DNA of 64,000 nucleotides from Dehalococcoidia bacterium (lineage in GTDB: Bacteria > Chloroflexota > Dehalococcoidia > Bin125). The translations under genes were made by a program, and so were the position numbers. Under the pieces are notes generated by a model. The model made no database searches and was not told the origin of the DNA. It was given only the letters and a program-made list of their open reading frames with translations. The stretch's first letter is position 1, and every line of letters starts with the position of its first letter. The stretch covers positions 273,119 to 337,118 of the forward strand of contig OZ251457.1 in NCBI GenBank assembly GCA_965242565.1, written 5' to 3'. Of this stretch, positions 4,364 through 62,026 are shown piece after piece.

Positions 4364-4499
4364 TGGGTGTACCCCCCCCCCCTCAAGACGTAACCGCGAA
4401 CGCTGTTCAGTGCCATGTTGCCGCTCCGAATCGCACTCCCAAAAGGGCGCAAGGTGGTCCGCCGGAAAAGCGCAGTCGCGTCCCCGCAGGCTAGCACGG

Positions 4500-5110
4500 C
4501 CGGCGGGCCTCCCCGCCCCCTTATCCACCGCCCCTCCCGCCCCCCCGCACCCCTTCCGTCGCTCCCGCACTCCCTCCCGTCGCCCCAGTACCCCCTCCCG
4601 TCGCCCCAGCACCCCCTCCTGTCGCCCCAGCACCCCCTCCTGTCGCCCCAGAACCCCCTCCGTCGCCCCAGAACCCCCTTCCGTCGCCCCAGACTTGATC
4701 TGGGGCCCAAACCCAATGTTGTGCGCAGCGCTGGAGTCCCGAGCGGTCTCCCAACGCCGTGCGCGGGCTGTTCGGTGCGCTGTGCTGCGAACGGCCGCCG
4801 TCTGGGCCCCATCACAGTTGCTCCGTCATTCCCGCCCCTCACTTCTCCGTCATTCCCGCCCCTCACTTCTCTGTCATTCCCGCCCCCGAGCGGGAATCTC
4901 CCCGCGTCACCACTTCCGTCGCCCCAGACTTGATCTGGGGCCCATACGGCGGTGGTTGGCGAGACGGGGCCCCGAGTGGCCTGCGAACGGCGTTGGCAGG
5001 GCATCCCGACGCTCGACGTCGCGCACAACGTTGGGCTTAGTTGGGCTTAGCCCCCAGATCAAGTCTGGGGCGACGGCAAGGGGTGCTGGGGCGACGGATC
5101 CTGCGGCTGG
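4500..5110. repeat. Palindromic repeat cluster with a tandem 21-bp half-site array
   Basis: About six copies of ccccctccygtcgccccagna at 4570-4690 lead into full family B at 4681. Family C at about 4873 is preceded by half-copies. Family B also at about 4916 and reverse about 5050-5076. Confidence 0.9.
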
Positions 5111-54438: not shown

Positions 54439-57072
54439 TCATGTCGTGCGGGCCTGGACTGTCACGGGGCCGCCGGCGGCGCCGAGGAGGCGCTGGGGCG
54501 CGCCCTGGTTGTGGAGGATGGGGAGCCAGACGGCGCCGGGAGGGACATCTTCGCTGATTTCGGCCTGGGCGGTGAGTTCTGCGCCGCCGCCTGTGGTTGC
54601 GCTGATTCTGACCGACGCGCCTGCGGTGATGCCTCGTTCAGCGGCGTCGGCGGGGTGGAGTTGGACGGTGTCGGCGCGGTGCAGGAGGTCGGCGTCGGCC
54701 GCGCCACGGGCCGCCGAGAGCCGGTCGGTGTAGAGGTCGCGGCCGGTCAGCAGCGTGAGGCCGTCGCCGCTCGCGCCCACCGCCTCGACCGGCAGGAGGC
54801 GCTGGGTGGCCGCGCCGTTGGTCGGCTGGCGCGACTGCGTCGCCGCCGCCCCCGGACCGGTCAGGGCCGAGTAGCGCGCATCATGCGCGGCGATGGCGGC
54901 GCGGGCTTCGGCGGCGTTCTGCGGCATTTGGGGAGCGGGGATCACGGTCGGCTCGGCGTCCTCGTCCTCGGCGGCGATGGTGATGTCCATCGCGGGCAGG
55001 CCGGCCGCGAGCAGCGTCAGCCAGTCGGCCAGGCCGCGCCCGTTGCGCTGCGCCTCGGCGGCGGCGCGCAGGCGCAGAATCTGGCGGTCGGCGTTGGTGA
55101 TGTGCCCGTCCTTGCCGAAGGCGGAGATGTCGGGCAGCACGTGGGTGGCGAGTTCGACGGTTTGAGTGCGGACCTCGTCGATCACGACCAGCAGGTCCAG
55201 CGCTTCGAGCGCCGCGCGCGTGGCGTCCTGATCGGGGTGGAGCAGCATCGGGTTGTCGCGGGCGACGAGCAGCGCCTTCAGCTCGCCGGCGCGGGCGGCT
55301 TCGAGCATTTGGGCGACGCCGAGCCCGCCCTCGCCGGGCGCAATGCCGAGGTCGCGCAGACCCACGCTGTTGGCTTCGGGCGGCAGCACGTGAAGCGCCG
55401 CGGGCGCAGCCTCGGGCCCGGCCAGGATCACGGCGAGGTTGGCGGCGGCGCGCACCTGCGCAGCTGCCTGCGCGGCGTTGGCGCGGGAGGGCGCGACGAC
55501 GATCGCGGCGGCTCCGCCGCGGCGGCGGGCGAGCGTGGCGACGGCGTCGTCGAGTTCGTTGCGAGTGGCGGCGGTCACGTCGGAGAGGCCGTCGAGCTCG
55601 GAGAGCGAGGCGCGGATGTCCATGTCGCGCAGCAGCCCGGCGGCGAGCGCCTGCGCCACGCCGGCGAGATCGCCGTCGGACGGGTGGACGGCGTGCCGCT
55701 CATCGACGGCGTAGTCGGCGAGCGGGTTGCGGCGCGCGGAGATGCTGACGAGCGCCGCGCCGTTGTTGGCCACGGCATCCTTAATCCGCACGCCGAGCAC
55801 GTTGTTGGAGGCGGAGATGTCGTCGCCGATAGCCACGATCAGATCCGCCGACTCAACCGACGTGAGGCGCGAGGGCAGGTGCTCGGAGCCGAAAGCGTCG
55901 CGCAGTGCGTCGCCGATCGCGGCGGTGACGGGGCCGAGCGAGGAGTCGAGGTTGCGCACGCCGAGCCGCCGGGCGAGCGCGCGGAGGGCGAACAGCTCTT
56001 CCGTAGGGGATTGTCCGGAGCCGAGGATGCCGACGGCGGCCGGGCCGTGCTCGGCGAGGACGGCCCCGAGCTTGCTTGCGGCATCGGCGGCGACCGCTGC
56101 GCCGTCCTGCTCGAAGGCGTCTTCGCCGCGCCCGATCGAGGCGGCGCGCAGGCGGTCCTTGTCGCGCGTCTGGTCGTAGCCGAAGCGTCCGCGCACGCAA
56201 ATCTGGCTGCGCGAGACATCGTTGCCGTTGCCCGGCCGCACCTGCACGCCGCGCCCGTCGCGGACGCCCATCTGGATCGTGCAGCCCATCGAGCACTCCG
56301 TGCAGGTGGTCGTGACCCACTTGTCGGGCCGCGCCACCCACTTGTTGGGCGCTTCCATCAGCGTGGCGGTGGGGCAGACATCGACGCACGCGCCGCAGAA
56401 GTCGCAGTTGGACTCGTCGATCTGCCCGCCCGCGCCGAAGGCGATCCGGGTGGTGAAGCCGCGCCCGGCCAGCGTGATCGCGGTCGTGTGGCGCAGGTCG
56501 TCGCAGGCCCGCACGCAGCGGGTGCAGATGATGCACATCTGCGGGTCGAACTCGAAGAAGGGGTTGGCGCGGTCCGGTTCGGGCTGCTGGTGGCGGTAGT
56601 AGGTGCGCGCCTCGTCGATGTAGGGCTCGACGTTGGCGCGCCCCACATCGGCGGCGTCGCAGGTGGTCTGGAGCTCGCAGCGGTAGTTCTTCGAGCAGGT
56701 CACGCAGCGGTGCGTGACCTCGTTGTCGCGCAGGCAGATTTCGCCGGTGCGGCAGTGCTCGACACGGTGGCAGGTGAGGCAGCGGTCGGAGTGGTTGGCC
56801 AGGATCACGGCCAGCACTTCCTGGCGCATCTCGGTCACGGCCGGGGTGTCGGTGCGGACCACCATGCCGTCACTCACCTGGGTGGTGCAGGAGAGCGGAA
56901 GGCCGCGCATGCCCTCGATCTCGACCGCGCAGGTGCGGCAGCCGGCGTAGGCGGGCAGCCCGTCCAGGTAGCAGAGGTTGGAGATGGGGAAACCGGCGTT
57001 CTTGATGACTTCGACGAGCGGCGCGCGCTCAGGCGCGTCGACGGCGACGCCGTTGATGGTGATCCGTGCCAT
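54439..57072 (-). CDS. NuoG / formate dehydrogenase alpha-like Fe-S and molybdopterin-fold oxidoreductase subunit
   Basis: 2Fe-2S (C..GCRTC), H...C..C, CIICTRCVRAC, CDFCGACVDVCP, CTECSMGC..ICVRG, C-terminal molydop-binding domain. Confidence 0.88.
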   Translation of the reverse strand: MARITINGVAVDAPERAPLVEVIKNAGFPISNLCYLDGLPAYAGCRTCAVEIEGMRGLPLSCTTQVSDGMVVRTDTPAVTEMRQEVLAVILANHSDRCLTCHRVEHCRTGEICLRDNEVTHRCVTCSKNYRCELQTTCDAADVGRANVEPYIDEARTYYRHQQPEPDRANPFFEFDPQMCIICTRCVRACDDLRHTTAITLAGRGFTTRIAFGAGGQIDESNCDFCGACVDVCPTATLMEAPNKWVARPDKWVTTTCTECSMGCTIQMGVRDGRGVQVRPGNGNDVSRSQICVRGRFGYDQTRDKDRLRAASIGRGEDAFEQDGAAVAADAASKLGAVLAEHGPAAVGILGSGQSPTEELFALRALARRLGVRNLDSSLGPVTAAIGDALRDAFGSEHLPSRLTSVESADLIVAIGDDISASNNVLGVRIKDAVANNGAALVSISARRNPLADYAVDERHAVHPSDGDLAGVAQALAAGLLRDMDIRASLSELDGLSDVTAATRNELDDAVATLARRRGGAAAIVVAPSRANAAQAAAQVRAAANLAVILAGPEAAPAALHVLPPEANSVGLRDLGIAPGEGGLGVAQMLEAARAGELKALLVARDNPMLLHPDQDATRAALEALDLLVVIDEVRTQTVELATHVLPDISAFGKDGHITNADRQILRLRAAAEAQRNGRGLADWLTLLAAGLPAMDITIAAEDEDAEPTVIPAPQMPQNAAEARAAIAAHDARYSALTGPGAAATQSRQPTNGAATQRLLPVEAVGASGDGLTLLTGRDLYTDRLSAARGAADADLLHRADTVQLHPADAAERGITAGASVRISATTGGGAELTAQAEISEDVPPGAVWLPILHNQGAPQRLLGAAGGPVTVQARTT

Positions 57073-57220
57073 CGTGGTCCTTCCGTTGCGGAGGGCGGCT
57101 TTGGCTTTGGGCGCAGTCTAGCAGCGCATCGGTTGAGGCATGGAAGGCATGGGTTGACTTGTGCCCGAAGACCACTTACCTTTGCCCGACCGAGAGGTGA
57201 GGGAGAGGAAGGTCGCGGCG

Positions 57221-58783
57221 ATGAGACACGCAGCATTCGTGTTCGCACGAACGTTCTGTGGGGGGGGGGGGGGGGCAACTCTCCTAGCTAGCGCCGTGGC
57301 GCTGACCATAGCGGTGGCTTGGGCGACGACAGCCGCGAGCGCGCAAGGGTCATGTCCGACGCTCGCCGATTTGCGACCGGAACTGAATGCCCCGGTGACT
57401 GTCTCGGGTTCGTGGTCTTCTTCGGATTGCGAAGCGCCGTGGCGAGAGGATCGCTACTCGGATCGATACCGCCTGCACATCTCGGAGCTCGCGTGGGTGA
57501 TGATCGATCTCACTTCGCGTGTCGACACATGGCTCCGCCTCGTCGATGCGGACGACCGTCGACCAGTGGACAACGACGACATCAGCTACTCCAGTCGTAA
57601 CCTTAACTCTCGGATCGTGCGGCCGCTTGAACCGGGGACATACTACGTCGAAGCGTCGACCTACGGCCCTCGAGCAACAGGCTCCTATGCCTTGCGCATC
57701 AGCGTCGACGACTGCAAGGCGATCGAGATCGCAGTCCCGTACAGCAGTCGTGAGAGCCTGTCGCCTGACGGCTGCCACGACCTGTACGACCTCGCCGACT
57801 ACGCGGACATCTACAGCTTCCAGCTGGATGTCGAGGCCGAGCTGACCATTGACTTGGGGTCCAGAGCATTCAACGCATTCGTGCGCCTGCTGGACGATCG
57901 CGGAACCGAGATCGAACACGACAATGACGACGGCAACGGACAGGACTCGTGGATCGAACTGGTGCTTCCGGCAGGGGCGTACCATATCGTCGCAACGGAC
58001 TACAGCAGGGGCCGAGGGGAAGGCTCCTACGAGCTTCGCGTGGCAGTGGAGTGGGCAGAGAGCGTCTACAGAGACGAAGTTCATGAACCATGTGAGCCGG
58101 ATCGACATCTCCGCACCAGCCCATACTGGAAGGACGATCCGCTGGACGTCCAATCCGTGAAGCAGCTGATGACAAGGGTGCTGTTTCAGATCGCAGCTGA
58201 TGATGACGTTACCCTCTGCACCAACTCCGACTACAACGACTTCGGCGCACCAAGGCCGTGGCATGGAGCGGGAGGGTATACCGGCGGCCACGCAGGGTGG
58301 GACGTTCAGACGACGAACGTCTACCAAGACCGCACGGCGAACGTGCCGTTCTACTCTCTGACCGACGGCGAGGTCGTCTATGTCGATTCCATGTCGCTTG
58401 GCGCTATCGGGGTGTATGACGCCGACGAGGGCTTCACTGTCTACTACCTTCACGCACGCCACGTGTACGTGCGTGAAGGCCAGCGAGTGTCGGTCGATCA
58501 GCGTCTCGGAATCCAGGGAGACGCAGGTGTTCCGGGGAAGGAGCACATCCATATTGAGGTGCATCGCGGTAGCCGTACCGTCCCTGACGAGCAGGGAAAT
58601 TTACGCCACCACTTTGGAGGAGCATTCAACGCTCCTGGCCGTGGCGGTGCTAACACCCTGCTGCTGTGGCACGAACAGCTGAATTACCTGTGCGAGGCGT
58701 CGGCGGGCAGCCAGCTTCGGCTGGACAATGGACGGTGTCCGTCACTAGACGCGACTGACGCGCCCAGCCCGGATCTCAGATGA
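57221..58783 (+). CDS. Secreted protein with two PPC-like domains and an M23 peptidase; G16 tract in the signal-peptide region
   Basis: DTWLRL..DNDD..NSRI..PGTYYVEAST (PPC-like, twice); HAGWD, YLH and HIH M23 zinc motifs. Confidence 0.85.
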   Translation: MRHAAFVFARTFCGGGGGATLLASAVALTIAVAWATTAASAQGSCPTLADLRPELNAPVTVSGSWSSSDCEAPWREDRYSDRYRLHISELAWVMIDLTSRVDTWLRLVDADDRRPVDNDDISYSSRNLNSRIVRPLEPGTYYVEASTYGPRATGSYALRISVDDCKAIEIAVPYSSRESLSPDGCHDLYDLADYADIYSFQLDVEAELTIDLGSRAFNAFVRLLDDRGTEIEHDNDDGNGQDSWIELVLPAGAYHIVATDYSRGRGEGSYELRVAVEWAESVYRDEVHEPCEPDRHLRTSPYWKDDPLDVQSVKQLMTRVLFQIAADDDVTLCTNSDYNDFGAPRPWHGAGGYTGGHAGWDVQTTNVYQDRTANVPFYSLTDGEVVYVDSMSLGAIGVYDADEGFTVYYLHARHVYVREGQRVSVDQRLGIQGDAGVPGKEHIHIEVHRGSRTVPDEQGNLRHHFGGAFNAPGRGGANTLLLWHEQLNYLCEASAGSQLRLDNGRCPSLDATDAPSPDLR

Positions 58784-58927
58784 CGGCATGAATGGCGGTG
58801 CGTGCAACGACGTCATCACCACGTGTGGCGCAGAAGCGGCCACCAGTGGGTCGGGGCAAGATCGACTCTAGGGGTGTCGCGATCCGGAGGTAGGATAGGC
58901 TGCGGAGGCGAGGTGAGTTAGGGGACT

Positions 58928-59866
58928 GTGGTGTGGTTCTGGGTGCTTGGGCTGTTGGTGGGGTTGGCGGTTTCGCTGGCGTTGGGGCGGGCGTCTGCGC
59001 CGTCGGCAGAGCAGGCGGAGGCCGCGCCGGCTGATGCGCCGATCGCTGCGCCGGCGGTGGAGCAGAGCACGGCGCCCGATGTGGCGGCGGTCAGCGTGGG
59101 AGGATCGCACTCTTGCGCGCTGGATGCGGAGGGCGGGGTGGTGTGCTGGGGGGCGAACGGGGATGGGCAGCTGGATGCGCCGGAAGGGGCGTTCGCGTTG
59201 GTGAGCGCGGGGGATACCCATACGTGCGCGATTGACGTTGACGGGGCGCTCCGATGCTGGGGATCGGCGGAGTTCGGCAAGGCGTCGGTCCCGGCGGGGC
59301 GATTTGCGCGGGTGAGCGCCGGCGAGGATCACACCTGCGCGGTGCGCGAGGACGGGGCGATCGTCTGCTTCGGCTGGGATCGCTACGGGCAGTCGAGCGC
59401 GCCGGCGGGTGAGTGGCAGGATGTGGGCGTGGGCGAGGATCACTCGTGCGGACTGCGGGTGGATGGGACGATCGTGTGCTGGGGCGACAACTCGTGGGAT
59501 CAGCTGGAGTCGCCGGCGGGAACGTTCGCGGCGCTGACGGTGGGCGATGATCACAGCTGCGCGCTGACATCGGCGGGGCGCATGGTCTGCTGGGGGTTCG
59601 ATCAGCGCGGGCAGCTGTGGCCGCCGGAGGGTTTGGAGGCGGCGCGGATTTCGGCGGGATACGACAGCGCGTGCGCACTGACGGTCGCGGGGCGGGTGCG
59701 TTGTTGGGGCGCGCTGGAGGAGCCGTCGGCGGAGCTTCAGGCGTTGGGGTTTGTGATGGTGGATGTTGGGCACGGGCACGCGTGCGGGGTGACAACGGAG
59801 CGGCGGGTGCATTGCTGGCCGGCGAGTCCGACGGATGTGCCATCTGGAGTCGGCGGTGGCGGTTGA
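58928..59866 (+). CDS. Secreted RCC1-repeat protein
   Basis: About seven repeats of VSAG..HTCA...DG...CWG....GQ. Confidence 0.9.
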   Translation: MVWFWVLGLLVGLAVSLALGRASAPSAEQAEAAPADAPIAAPAVEQSTAPDVAAVSVGGSHSCALDAEGGVVCWGANGDGQLDAPEGAFALVSAGDTHTCAIDVDGALRCWGSAEFGKASVPAGRFARVSAGEDHTCAVREDGAIVCFGWDRYGQSSAPAGEWQDVGVGEDHSCGLRVDGTIVCWGDNSWDQLESPAGTFAALTVGDDHSCALTSAGRMVCWGFDQRGQLWPPEGLEAARISAGYDSACALTVAGRVRCWGALEEPSAELQALGFVMVDVGHGHACGVTTERRVHCWPASPTDVPSGVGGGG

Positions 59867-60682: not shown

Positions 60683-62026
60683 GTGCCTATGGCTGTGCCC
60701 GATGTGCCGGGGTCTCTGACGCTGCTGCTGCCGGATCACTGGGCGGCGTCTGATCGCGCGTTGGAGGCGATTGAGTATCCCAATCCGGCCTGGACGTTCC
60801 AGCGCGGACATTTCGGCGAGCTGGCGCTGACGCCGCTGCCGGGGCATCGCAACTCGGCCGTCAGCACCGAGGTCACGATGCAGTTCCTCGAGTGGCACAA
60901 GCAGCACGAGGAGGGCGTGTTGCACGGCTTCAACATCGGCTACGCGCCGACCGATGACGAGGGCCGCGCGCCGGGCCTGGCGGCCGCGACCTCCTGGATC
61001 GCGCCGGATCAGGTCGAGGCGCTGCGCGAGGAGCGCGGCGAGCCGCTGGGCGAGTACGACCCCGAAAAGCCGTTCCCGGCCTGCGCGCCCGCCTTCGTGC
61101 TGGAAATCCGCTCGCCCTATCAGTCGCTGCGGCAATGCACCGACAAAATGCGCCTCTGGATGCACTTCGGGACACGACTCGGCTGGCTCTTCGACCCCGA
61201 CAATCTGGAGGTGCGGATCTACCGCCCCGGTCGGCCGGCGCAGCGGCGAATGAAGCCGCCCCAGCTGCGCGGCGAGGAAGTGTTACAGGGGCTGGTCTTC
61301 GACTGCCGCCCGATCTGGGAGGAGCTGGCCGAGCGCGGCGAGCCCTCGCGCTCCAACCAGCCGCTGCTCGACTGGCGGGCGCACGGCGACATTCGCGGCG
61401 CGGTCGATCCGAGTTATCGCCCGGGCGGATCGGACCCGGCGCTGCAAACAATCCGTGAGGGCCCGCTGCCGCTGCTGGACCTCTGGCTGCCCGATGAGTG
61501 GCCGCTCGACGACGCGGCGCTGGCGCAGCTGAACGAGCGCAATCCGCAGTGGGCGTTCGAGATGGGCCTCGACGGCGGCTTGCAAATTACCGATCCGAAC
61601 GAAGCGGAAGCCTCGCCGCGCACAAGCAGCAGTAGCACACTGATGAACCCCGACGCGCCCCGCGCCCCGCAGGTGATGAGCGCCGCGACCTCCTGGGTAT
61701 CCGACGAGCGGCTGAAGAACGCAAAGCGCGCCGACTCCGCAGGCACGATCGAAGTAGTGCCCAACTTCGTAGCCGAGATTCGCTCCGGCTCACAATCGCT
61801 CACGGATCTCCAACACAAAATGCTGCGCTGGATCTACTACGGCGTGCAACTCGGCTGGCTGCTGGACCCCGATACCCGCACAGTCTGGATCTACCGCGAA
61901 AACCAGCCCCCCGAAAAAGTAGTAAGCCCCCGCCAACTGTCGGGCGAAGATGTAATGGTCGGCTTCACGCTGGAGCTGGACCAAATCTGGGACTGGGCGG
62001 GGGACCTGGAGGAGGGCGAAGGGTAG
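60683..62026 (+). CDS. Double Uma2 (DUF820) domain protein
   Basis: PAFVLEIRSP..KM..W...GTRLGWLFDP and PNFVAEIRSG..KM..W...GVQLGWLLDP. Confidence 0.88.
   Translation: MPMAVPDVPGSLTLLLPDHWAASDRALEAIEYPNPAWTFQRGHFGELALTPLPGHRNSAVSTEVTMQFLEWHKQHEEGVLHGFNIGYAPTDDEGRAPGLAAATSWIAPDQVEALREERGEPLGEYDPEKPFPACAPAFVLEIRSPYQSLRQCTDKMRLWMHFGTRLGWLFDPDNLEVRIYRPGRPAQRRMKPPQLRGEEVLQGLVFDCRPIWEELAERGEPSRSNQPLLDWRAHGDIRGAVDPSYRPGGSDPALQTIREGPLPLLDLWLPDEWPLDDAALAQLNERNPQWAFEMGLDGGLQITDPNEAEASPRTSSSSTLMNPDAPRAPQVMSAATSWVSDERLKNAKRADSAGTIEVVPNFVAEIRSGSQSLTDLQHKMLRWIYYGVQLGWLLDPDTRTVWIYRENQPPEKVVSPRQLSGEDVMVGFTLELDQIWDWAGDLEEGEG

Follow-up and report, generated by a model that had tools for sequence, protein, structure and literature searches.

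We believe that the run of 16 G's 13 codons into the gene of a secreted M23 peptidase is a contingency locus, a hypermutable homopolymer subject to slipped-strand phase variation, and we put the probability of this reading at about 0.68. The general course of such switching can be sketched. Consider a cell in which slipped-strand mispairing during replication adds G's to the run or removes them. With 16, 13 or 19 G's, the start codon and n-region would be in frame with the h-region of the signal peptide, and the PPC-PPC-M23 peptidase would be made and exported. One G more or fewer would bring a TAG into frame 3 or 4 codons past the run and leave a peptide of about 22 amino acids, the OFF state, and a three-base change would alter only the number of glycines, in a signal peptide that would be cleaved off anyway. 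With about 40 such switches in this genome, the cells of one population would differ in their surface and secreted proteins.

The features of the target gene in the window, the whole stretch of DNA that was analysed (64 kb), are these:

57154..57182, + strand: candidate promoter, TTGACT, a 17-nt spacer and TACCTT (a TAnnnT-type -10 box), picked out by eye
57201..57212, + strand: Shine-Dalgarno-like GGGAGAGGAAGG, 8 nt 5' of the ATG; the leader ATG is flagged SD-positive
57221..58783, + strand: whole gene, 520 aa, an ORF from ATG
57221..57259, + strand: start codon and 13-codon leader MRHAAFVFARTFC, the signal-peptide n-region, from the ORF reading
57260..57275, + strand: homopolymer G16, 16 G counted in the sequence; codons 14-19, five Gly and the first base of Ala; the proposed slipped-strand switch
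57275..57343, + strand: signal-peptide h- and c-regions ATLLASAVALTIAVAWATTAASA; 12-aa hydrophobicity maximum of 2.50 directly past G16, predicted cleavage after ASA
57285..57291, + strand: TAGCTAG, with TAGs at 57285-57287 and 57289-57291, one per wrong frame, 3 and 4 codons past G16
57458..57658, + strand: first PPC (pre-peptidase C-terminal) domain, residues ~80-146, 21.2 bits alone
57803..57991, + strand: second PPC domain, residues ~195-257, 24.9 bits alone
58337..58579, + strand: Peptidase M23 domain with the motifs HAGWD (residue 357) and HIH (residue 442)

The tract begins at codon 14 and the ORF runs through it, translating as MRHAAFVFARTFC-GGGGG-ATLLASAVALTIAVAWATTAASA/QG, so that the G16 is in frame, or ON, as the first-pass annotation had read it; the placement given there, in the signal peptide of a PPC-PPC-M23 peptidase where the n-region meets the h-region, agrees with the ORF, the hydrophobicity and Pfam. 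Lying inside an ORF, the homopolymer exceeds the length of ~8-9 bases at which contingency loci are hypermutable, and gaining or losing one base truncates the product at a TAG, whereas a three-base change keeps the frame. The strain in run X4 carries a C at 57285, and the first TAG is gone there. A strict sigma-70 scan returned 0 sites and left the candidate TTGACT/TACCTT promoter of the peptidase gene unflagged; TTGAC(C/T)...TAGCCT pairs, similar to it, lie 5' of other tract genes. RNA folding around G16 gave a z-score of 0.56, no notable structure, and an Rfam scan of the 64-kb window gave 0 matches.

The encoded protein has the marks of a predicted Sec-type signal peptide, namely R2 and R10 in the leader, an h-region, and ASA/QG at residues 39-43, the cleavage site being placed there by the AXA rule. 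On the whole protein, Pfam scores PPC at 38.8 bits against a cut-off of 25.9, with each PPC stretch singly below that cut-off, and Peptidase_M23 (PF01551) at 42.8 bits against 28.7. The HxxxD and HxH zinc motifs, which we take to be the defining marks of peptidase family M23, are both found. The closest solved chains are ShyA (E = 3e-5) and LytM (E = 2e-4), a weak similarity; together with the zinc motifs, it is in keeping with the first-pass description of the enzyme as peptidoglycan-hydrolase-like, which we retain as a putative function.

The tract belongs to a large and unusual set. In the whole genome (3.26 Mb, 68.5% GC, a single contig), 40 G/C runs of 10 or more bases were seen against 2.5 expected from a log-linear fit of G/C runs of lengths 3-8, and the long runs form a second mode at 11-16 bases; 0.001 or less is expected at each length of 15 or more, and 7 G15 and 3 G16 were seen. 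A/T runs reach 8 bases at most across the genome. In the window itself, the G/C runs of 9 or more bases are the G16 and one other:

4372..4382, - strand: G11 (C11 on the + strand), in the gene of an FG-GAP/Big_1 protein, 34 nt past the ATG at 4416-4414 and before the h-region

In the 1165-aa FG-GAP/Big_1 protein the G11 tract is out of frame, or OFF, and +1 or -2 bases would be needed to open it. The first-pass annotation had noticed only two long G/C homopolymers in 64 kb, both early in genes of secreted proteins, and had argued from them against chance; the two are indeed alone in the window, at codon 14 and 34 nt past the ATG, and the genome-wide excess carries the argument much further than two runs could.

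The placement of the runs is as telling as their number. An automatic test that required a hydrophobic stretch within a long high-GC3 frame found a signal-peptide-like stretch directly past the run in 23 of the 40 long tracts, and the same test was positive at 4.2% of 20,000 random positions (binomial p = 8e-22), an enrichment in signal-peptide segments that the first-pass annotation had anticipated. Only 2 of 41 runs of 8-9 bases show such placement. By manual reading, 29 of the 40 tracts lie within signal-peptide coding segments, and their genes encode secreted repeat proteins (RCC1, PKD, fn3, Big_1/FG-GAP, collagen) and three M23 peptidases; all M23 peptidase paralogs of the genome (3/3) carry a tract. 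The runs are thus both in large excess and non-random over gene classes, as in contingency loci. Other tracts lie 5' of genes, in an Eco47II-type restriction endonuclease (PF09553; C15 seven codons past the start) and in a HEAT-DNA-methylase fusion (HEAT-N6_N4, PF01555; G15 internal to the ORF), and the runs in these two restriction-modification genes are conserved in a second species of the genus. Three of the upstream-region tracts are:

728959: G12, 17 nt 5' of a TAGCAT box
2980225: G16, 12 nt 5' of a TTGATC box
3141790: G15, directly past TTGACA

Upstream-region tracts near promoter-like boxes recur in genome G005, and their spacing alone makes them candidates for a promoter role. As for the secretome-wide phase-variation design that had been proposed from the window, the genome-wide placement of the tracts upholds its core, but the genes concerned are a subset of large repeat-domain secreted proteins, not the whole secretome. 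The upstream-region tracts and the two restriction-modification genes fall outside such a design. With regard to replication, the G strand is the leading one at 19 loci and the lagging one at 21, the GC skew being too noisy for an origin; MutS and MutL are present in the genome, so slippage would not go unrepaired by default.

Among signal-peptide loci, 8 of 28 are ON, close to the one in three of a free phase, and 20 of 28 are out of frame, calls that hinge on exact homopolymer lengths in one single-contig assembly. The OFF genes are mostly undecayed, with open bodies of 146 to 1951 aa and a GC3 of 0.72-0.92. At position 612254 the tract gene is truly broken, a 58-aa frame being followed by a continuation in another frame. 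At 16 of 29 loci a stop ends each of the two wrong frames no more than 8 codons past the run, as against 1.5% of 2297 control genes; wrong frames rarely close by chance in so GC-rich a genome, and the stop-closed loci span at least 10 different leader groups. A stop trap cannot, however, explain the whole motif, because the TAA also stands past the run on the G strand where the gene uses the other strand, as in the Eco47II gene and the poly-C family.

At sites with conserved flanks, run lengths do differ. Five paralogs of ~1250 aa carry C11, C11, C14, C12 and C12; the RCC1 loci have G11 in genome G001 and G15, G15, G17 and G17 in genome G005; and the site 5' of a DinB-like gene has G15 in genome G000 and G11 in genome G006. 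Since length change is seen between paralogs and between species only, and at loci other than the target, we infer, rather than observe, population-level switching, with tract length changing fast enough to switch within a population. A gapped DNA pattern for the tract of the ~1250-aa family found 0 matches in metagenome contigs.

At the target, contigs of runs X1, X4 and X5 (three samples of one study) all have G16 and bridge it without gaps, a comparison of assembled contigs, which drop rare length variants, so that the shared G16 neither proves invariance nor supports switching. The contigs of a fourth sample, X3, break at 57266 and 57287, and low depth (12-15) may be the sole cause of the break at the run. 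Loose contig ends occur at 57260 in X1 and X4, probably from other G-run loci or low-complexity contigs. In run X5, one clean contig spans 57052-58959 at a depth of 239, and the flanks stand at ~1000 or more with many variants. No full-length match to the peptidase gene was found in 39 related genomes, and the gene appears to be accessory, present only in some strains. Exact look-up of the 520-aa and 540-aa protein forms in the protein collection gave no match, and a protein-guided scan of metagenome contigs matched its pattern in 69 stretches, none of which encodes a relative. The leader MRHAAFVFARTFC is conserved in homologs of other assemblies (P0002, P0003). P0002, a distant homolog, likewise has five Gly (TFC-GGGGG-ATLLAG), and P0003, P0005 and P0007 have GG, LP and FG where the target has its Gly run; judged from these sequences, the Gly run of the target is an insertion.

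Could the runs be no switch at all? A mutational bias of the lineage might lengthen G/C runs at any site that can bear them, as signal peptides can bear runs of Gly at the n/h junction and of Pro at the h/c junction, and the out-of-frame genes would then be inactivated accessory genes. We regard this as unlikely. It would agree with runs located exactly where Gly or Pro is harmless, with the 20 of 28 loci out of frame, with an accessory target gene whose tract is G16 in three samples, and with at least one truly broken tract gene (612254), but it leaves unexplained why both wrong frames should be closed so soon and so often (16/29 versus 1.5% of controls), why OFF genes as long as 1951 aa have stayed open, why a restriction endonuclease and a methylase should carry runs, why tracts recur 5' of genes, and why 8-9-base runs lack such placement (2/41). 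That the runs are an artefact of sequencing or assembly, whether poly-G from two-colour chemistry or homopolymer miscalls, is close to refuted. It is true that exact lengths of 11-16 bases are difficult to call on any platform and that the fragmented relatives G007, G013 and G020 have artefact-like G runs no more than 120 bases from the ends of contigs. The G16, however, is internal to a 3.26-Mb contig and is matched base for base by contigs of three other runs, GGGGG is translated in the independent homolog P0002 of another assembly, and a conserved context is common to dozens of loci.

A further alternative is slippage of a different kind. Homopolymer slippage is known for A/T runs, and no bacterial example of it in the transcription of G runs is known to us; still, RNA polymerase or the ribosome might slip on DNA whose G11-G16 is fairly stable, the run setting a low expression level and not an on/off state, with each locus yielding a small in-frame fraction. 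The ribosome might shift on GGG codons near a stop, GGG-TAA-A resembling the prfB +1 site and the G run being Shine-Dalgarno-like. The G(n)TAAA loci lend this some colour: just 1 of 18 is ON in the DNA, below the free-phase expectation (a post hoc binomial of ~0.007, worked by hand), their bodies are still intact, and 10 of 18 are phased as GGG-TAA, so that shifting by +1 leads to the ON frame GGT-AAA. The identity of the target G16 in three samples would fit as well. Yet the target ORF is already in frame at the DNA level and its product needs no frame change, run lengths in DNA vary between paralogs and species, and tracts 5' of genes, outside coding sequence, cannot act in this way; on balance we consider slippage in expression distinctly unlikely. 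A separate role for the G run, as the Shine-Dalgarno sequence of a later start, was rejected, there being no suitably spaced in-frame ATG, GTG or TTG in the TAAAAC loci.

The contingency-locus reading has precedents. The poly-G of Neisseria pilC lies within the signal-peptide coding region, and by analogy pilC and the target would share an early in-ORF G run in the signal-peptide part, whose length would set the frame of an exported protein. The pilC product is a pilus tip adhesin, unrelated to the M23 peptidase of the target, and the Neisseria genome has ~50% GC against 68.5% here. To our knowledge, a conserved stop pair past the run has not been described for Neisseria pilC. Promoter homopolymer switches are known from the poly-G of Treponema pallidum tpr and the poly-C of Bordetella fim; the minority upstream-region tracts here are akin to these, whereas the target tract lies in an ORF. 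Campylobacter is not known to have MutS or MutL, both of which are present in this genome. Known phasevarions are likewise comparable, a methylase and a type II endonuclease here having a long run near the start of the ORF or within it, but they mostly involve repeat-bearing genes of the Type III mod or Type I hsdS kinds, in contrast to the HEAT-repeat-methylase fusion and Eco47II-type endonuclease that would be switched here.

The gene pilC is among the core phase-variable genes of Neisseria, in which 15-19 poly-G tracts per genome, of modal length 9-10, serve OMP and restriction-modification modules (PMC5953494); Campylobacter capC has a promoter G tract and capD an in-ORF G tract (PMC7168839). 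The Neisseria and Campylobacter phasomes resemble this genome in having tens of G/C runs, in surface and restriction-modification genes, and in both ORFs and promoters. Compared with theirs, the runs here have a greater length (mode 11-16), in a GC-rich genome, and a single position in the signal peptide, the n/h junction, accounts for most of them; they belong to an uncultured bacterium associated with sponges. In this genus each genome has 7 to 88 runs of at least 11 bases, and in the other searched families of the class 0 to 9.

A broader possibility, which we put forward tentatively and hold to be less likely than its alternatives taken together, is that the genus possesses a modular, recombining 'switchable export leader', by which a sponge symbiont varies eukaryote-like surface proteins and restriction enzymes cell by cell. 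Such a leader would consist of a promoter, an RBS, an ATG, 7-13 leader codons, 11 to ~20 G's in a row, a T-AAA-AC flank and the h-region, the flank closing one wrong frame at once and a second stop closing the other. Consistent with modularity, the PKD protein at 2088184 has a leader 84-100% identical to those of RCC1 proteins and a body without homology to theirs, and the leaders of two M23 genes are 95% identical, their bodies only 37%. At the target gene the module may have arisen independently, by expansion of a GG seed. Out-of-frame copies might leak via RNA or ribosome slippage, and the A-rich flank, on the G strand whichever strand codes, might be an element of mutability or decoding and not only a stop.

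Homopolymer phase variation is textbook material for a few host-adapted pathogens of low or moderate GC. Here the same logic would operate in an uncultured, GC-rich bacterium, found in sponge metagenomes, at a scale equal to or above that of the pathogens, a known kind of system that would now extend to a sponge-associated organism. In full-text literature searches, none of the papers found connected phase variation with sponge symbionts. The tract genes include the usual candidates for contact between symbiont and host, namely RCC1, PKD, fn3, Ig-like and collagen-like secreted proteins, along with bacteriolytic-type M23 peptidases and restriction-modification enzymes. Should the contingency-locus reading hold, the symbionts within a single sponge would form a mosaic in their surface types, which bears on escape from host feeding and on phage resistance, and the reading could be tested directly on existing long-read data. 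Gene callers would then mistake most tract genes for truncated genes or pseudogenes, given the 20 of 28 loci that the assembly shows out of frame. G11 followed by TAAAAC occurs in at least 113 stretches in a collection of 185,579 species, from which records close to this genome may be absent, and among the matches listed these are scattered over many phyla.

The gene at window positions 57221 to 58783 (forward strand, 520 aa) contains, in the sequence as read, exactly 16 G at 57260-57275, a run that begins in frame at codon 14 with a charged n-region before it and a hydrophobic h-region after it (12-residue hydrophobicity maximum 2.50). From the ATG, which GGGAGAGGAAGG precedes, the open reading frame reads MRHAAFVFARTFC-GGGGG-ATLLASAVALTIAVAWATTAASA/QG; PPC (two stretches) and Peptidase_M23 both exceed the Pfam cut-off, the protein has the zinc motifs HAGWD and HIH, and its closest solved relatives are ShyA and LytM, at weak E-values. 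The first-pass annotation had therefore described the run correctly in every element: position, frame, place at the n/h junction and PPC-PPC-M23 architecture. It was also right that the window holds only two long G/C homopolymers, as a scan of the 64 kb for runs of at least nine bases returns this G16 and a C11 at 4372-4382. The TAGCTAG after the run closes each wrong frame with a TAG of its own, 3 and 4 codons on. Homologs in other assemblies read TFC-GGGGG-ATLLAG (P0002), TFV-GG-TLLAS (P0003), TFC-LP-TLLVS (P0005) and FVF-GV-TLLAS (P0007), a comparison that marks the glycine run as an insertion; no other gene of the genome has this leader, and the run arose in place. An exact look-up of the protein in the protein collection returned no entry, and neither a protein-guided scan of metagenome contigs for relatives nor a pattern scan of them for the tract of a ~1250-aa protein family found any.

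The genome is a single contig of 3,259,939 bases (68.5% GC) in which G/C run counts fall by a factor of about 0.21 with each extra base up to length 10 and then rise anew, with 7, 9, 3, 9, 7 and 3 runs of 11, 12, 13, 14, 15 and 16 bases. Across the whole genome, 40 G/C runs of at least 10 bases are observed against 2.5 expected from a log-linear fit to lengths 3-8, and the longest A and T runs are 8 and 7 bases. The long G/C runs are a separate population rather than the tail of base composition, and the suggestion that they did not arise by chance is borne out. An automatic test required a frame after the run to be open for 100 aa or more, with a GC3 of 0.72 or higher and a hydrophobic stretch of 12 residues within 32 aa; it is passed by 23 of these 40 runs, by 2 of 41 runs of 8-9 bases, and by 4.2% of 20,000 random positions (p = 8e-22), which supports genome-wide the proposed enrichment of tracts in signal-peptide coding.

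Placement of the 40 G/C runs of at least 10 bases, by manual reading
Signal-peptide n/h junction, read as Gly, 20-57 nt 3' of the ATG: 21 runs
Following a lipoprotein-like Cys: 1 run
Poly-C at the signal-peptide h/c junction, read as Pro (ILT-PPPP-TNAQQ), in a ~1250-aa family and one related gene: 6 runs
Broken RCC1 gene (612254): 1 run
Signal-peptide coding, total: 29 of 40 runs
ABC permease, 5 nt before the ATG: 1 run
Upstream of signal-peptide-protein or solute-binding-protein genes, candidate -35/-10 boxes adjoining 3 and none read at 2414525: 4 runs
Eco47II-type restriction endonuclease, seven codons in: 1 run (C15)
Flanked by HEAT-repeat and N6_N4 DNA methylase domains: 1 run (G15)
Within a collagen-repeat ORF: 1 run
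Loop of a 13-bp hairpin, 27 nt past a stop codon: 1 run
Remaining runs, no class given: 2 runs

The tract gene products include RCC1 repeats (six genes), PKD, fn3, Big_1 and FG-GAP domains, and all three M23 peptidase genes of the genome carry a tract. Directly downstream of the M23 gene in the window, 58928-59866 encodes an RCC1-repeat protein with a hydrophobic N-terminus and no tract, of the same domain family as the six tract-bearing genes elsewhere.

With so much GC, wrong frames in this genome mostly run on without a stop: in 2297 control genes, both wrong frames are closed after a median of 113 codons, whereas both are closed within 8 codons of the run at 16 of 29 loci, as compared with 1.5% of controls. 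These double-stop loci are spread over at least 10 unrelated leader groups, and so are not one inherited accident. Of 22 G-type signal-peptide loci, 19 have a stop immediately 3' of the run, most often in the form G(n)-TAAAAC; the second TAA or TAG lies 2-6 codons further on in 15 of these and 9-58 codons further on in the other four. If a gene is called ON when its start codon is in frame with its body across the run, and OFF otherwise, 8 of 28 signal-peptide loci, near one in three, are ON. The bodies of most OFF genes are still open (146 to 1951 aa) with high GC3, which argues against plain decay; one RCC1 gene, at 612254, is broken and forms the exception.

Run lengths differ at conserved sites. 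Five paralogs with near-identical flanks carry C11, C11, C14, C12 and C12, of which C11 and C14 both keep the frame and encode PPP and PPPP. At RCC1 loci with matching flanks the run is G11 in one related genome (G001) and G15, G15, G17 and G17 in another (G005), where a second flank type carries G16 and G20. A tract common to the endonuclease gene and a DinB-like upstream region is G15 in this genome and G11 at the orthologous site of G006, a third relative (L013/L034), and both small M23 genes of G001 have G14 where the small M23 paralog here has G15.

Ordinary slipped-strand phase variation is the best-supported reading of these loci, and the main claim of the first-pass annotation, a genome-wide phase-variation design, is supported by the placement of 29 of 40 runs in signal-peptide coding, by the stops after the runs, and by the lengths differing between paralogs and species. 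Such a run would cost least where it lies, right at the beginning of the ORF, within a part of the protein that accepts stretches of Gly or Pro and is afterwards removed by cleavage, and the stops 3' of it would leave a tiny OFF product. MutS and MutL are both present in the genome, as they are in Neisseria. Two facts sit awkwardly with this reading: of the 18 G(n)TAAA loci a single one is ON, and the TAA flank stays on the G strand even when the gene lies on the opposite strand. In view of these, RNA- or ribosome-level slippage may contribute, and the A-rich flank may affect mutability.

The leaders are also modular, recurring in front of unrelated protein bodies. That of the PKD protein at 2088184 is 84-100% identical over 29-90 nt to those of the RCC1 genes at 2299787 and 2929439, with no match of its body to theirs. 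Conservation is much higher in leaders than in bodies: two M23 genes share 95% identity over 86 nt of leader and 37% over 210 aa of body. In pilC of Neisseria the poly-G run lies within signal-peptide coding, and this gene is the nearest single parallel to the run under study. The closest parallels overall are the phase-variable poly-G gene sets of Neisseria and Campylobacter, as described in PMC5953494 and PMC7168839. The locus probably belongs to a known kind of system, in what is an unusual host, an uncultured sponge-associated bacterium; a literature search, with subscription journals and preprint supplements outside it, turned up no paper that connects phase variation with sponge symbionts. 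Features of the design include the pair of stops, the fixed junction and the leaders in common.

Runs of at least 11 bases number 38 in this genome, 88, 22, 7, 9, 77, 30 and 49 in the other seven genomes of the genus, 0 to 30 in other genera of the family and 0 to 9 in 16 genomes from other families of the class, counts that in some fragmented assemblies include artefact-like runs at contig ends. Five of the eight genus genomes contain the form G(10 or more)-TAAA, at 19, 3, 5, 11 and 2 copies; it was absent from all 32 genomes searched outside the genus. Among the first 20 tract regions of G005 in coordinate order, 9 of 23 tracts precede a signal-peptide h-region and several others lie 16-17 nt 5' of a TAGCAT-type box. 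Among the matches listed, other MAGs of unrelated taxa contain paralogous loci whose flanks are identical and whose G runs before TAAAAC differ: G20, G22, G22 and G15 (L088, L099, L117, L143) in one labelled Bryobacterales by its submitters, G16 and G11 (L049, L052) in one labelled Binatia, and G15 and G17 (L054, L067) in one labelled Alphaproteobacteria. One labelled Dehalococcoidia has C21 six codons after the ATG, before a signal-peptide h-region (L077). Variable tracts may be widespread in such MAG assemblies.

In three samples from a single study (X1, X4, X5), among them possibly the source, assembled contigs cross the G16 with no gaps and therefore carry it, and in a sample of another study (X3, depth 12-15) they end at 57266 and resume at 57287; these being contigs, not reads, the comparison shows neither invariance nor variation of run length. 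In X4, position 57285 reads C, not T, at full depth; Leu22, where the h-region begins, thereby becomes Pro, and one off-frame TAG of the pair is lost. In X5, one clean contig at depth 239 spans 57052-58959 with the M23 gene, between flanks of depth about 1000 or more with many variants, and a loose end at 57081 runs into different sequence, so the gene seems to be an insertion present in part of the strains only. Its GC3 of 0.73 is below that of most tract genes.

Several loci elsewhere in the genome (contig C1) carry tracts of other kinds. At 3073971-3073985, C15 lies seven codons past the GTG start of the Eco47II-type endonuclease (PF09553, E = 5e-30; body in L193), which is out of frame by +1/-2; read from the opposite strand, the run is about 140 nt 5' of a DinB/MDMPI gene. 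At 3167556-3167570 (L195, L196), G15 separates a 175-aa HEAT-repeat ORF from the N6_N4 methylase domain, which has no start codon of its own and which G14 or G17 would join to the HEAT ORF, making this a candidate phase-variable methylase; G006 likewise has G15 there (L037). At 1886102-1886113, 27 nt past the stop codon of a 490-aa ORF, C12 makes up the loop of a perfect 13-bp G+C hairpin (GGGGGGCGAGCGC / GCGCTCGCCCCCC) that looks terminator-like with a variable loop. One FG-GAP gene (1164 aa) has two tracts, an upstream G12 (728959-728970) 17 nt 5' of a TAGCAT box and a C14 (729148-729161) at the signal-peptide h/c junction. An AT-rich motif (GTAAA..TTTGTGAAAT-like) lies just 5' of upstream-region tracts in G005 (L204, L205, L211, L212), in G006 (L022, L027) and here at 2980225, and at L211 and L212 the run has a TAnnnT box 16-17 nt 3' of it. 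At window 4531-4692, just 5' of the window's first tract gene, is a 21-nt tandem repeat (7.9 copies, 88% matches); the tract at 2980225 has a similar G-rich repeat before it. Finally, two stretches of a 447-aa ORF at window 60683-62026 match the Uma2 putative restriction endonuclease family, and the protein thus appears to be an internal tandem duplication.
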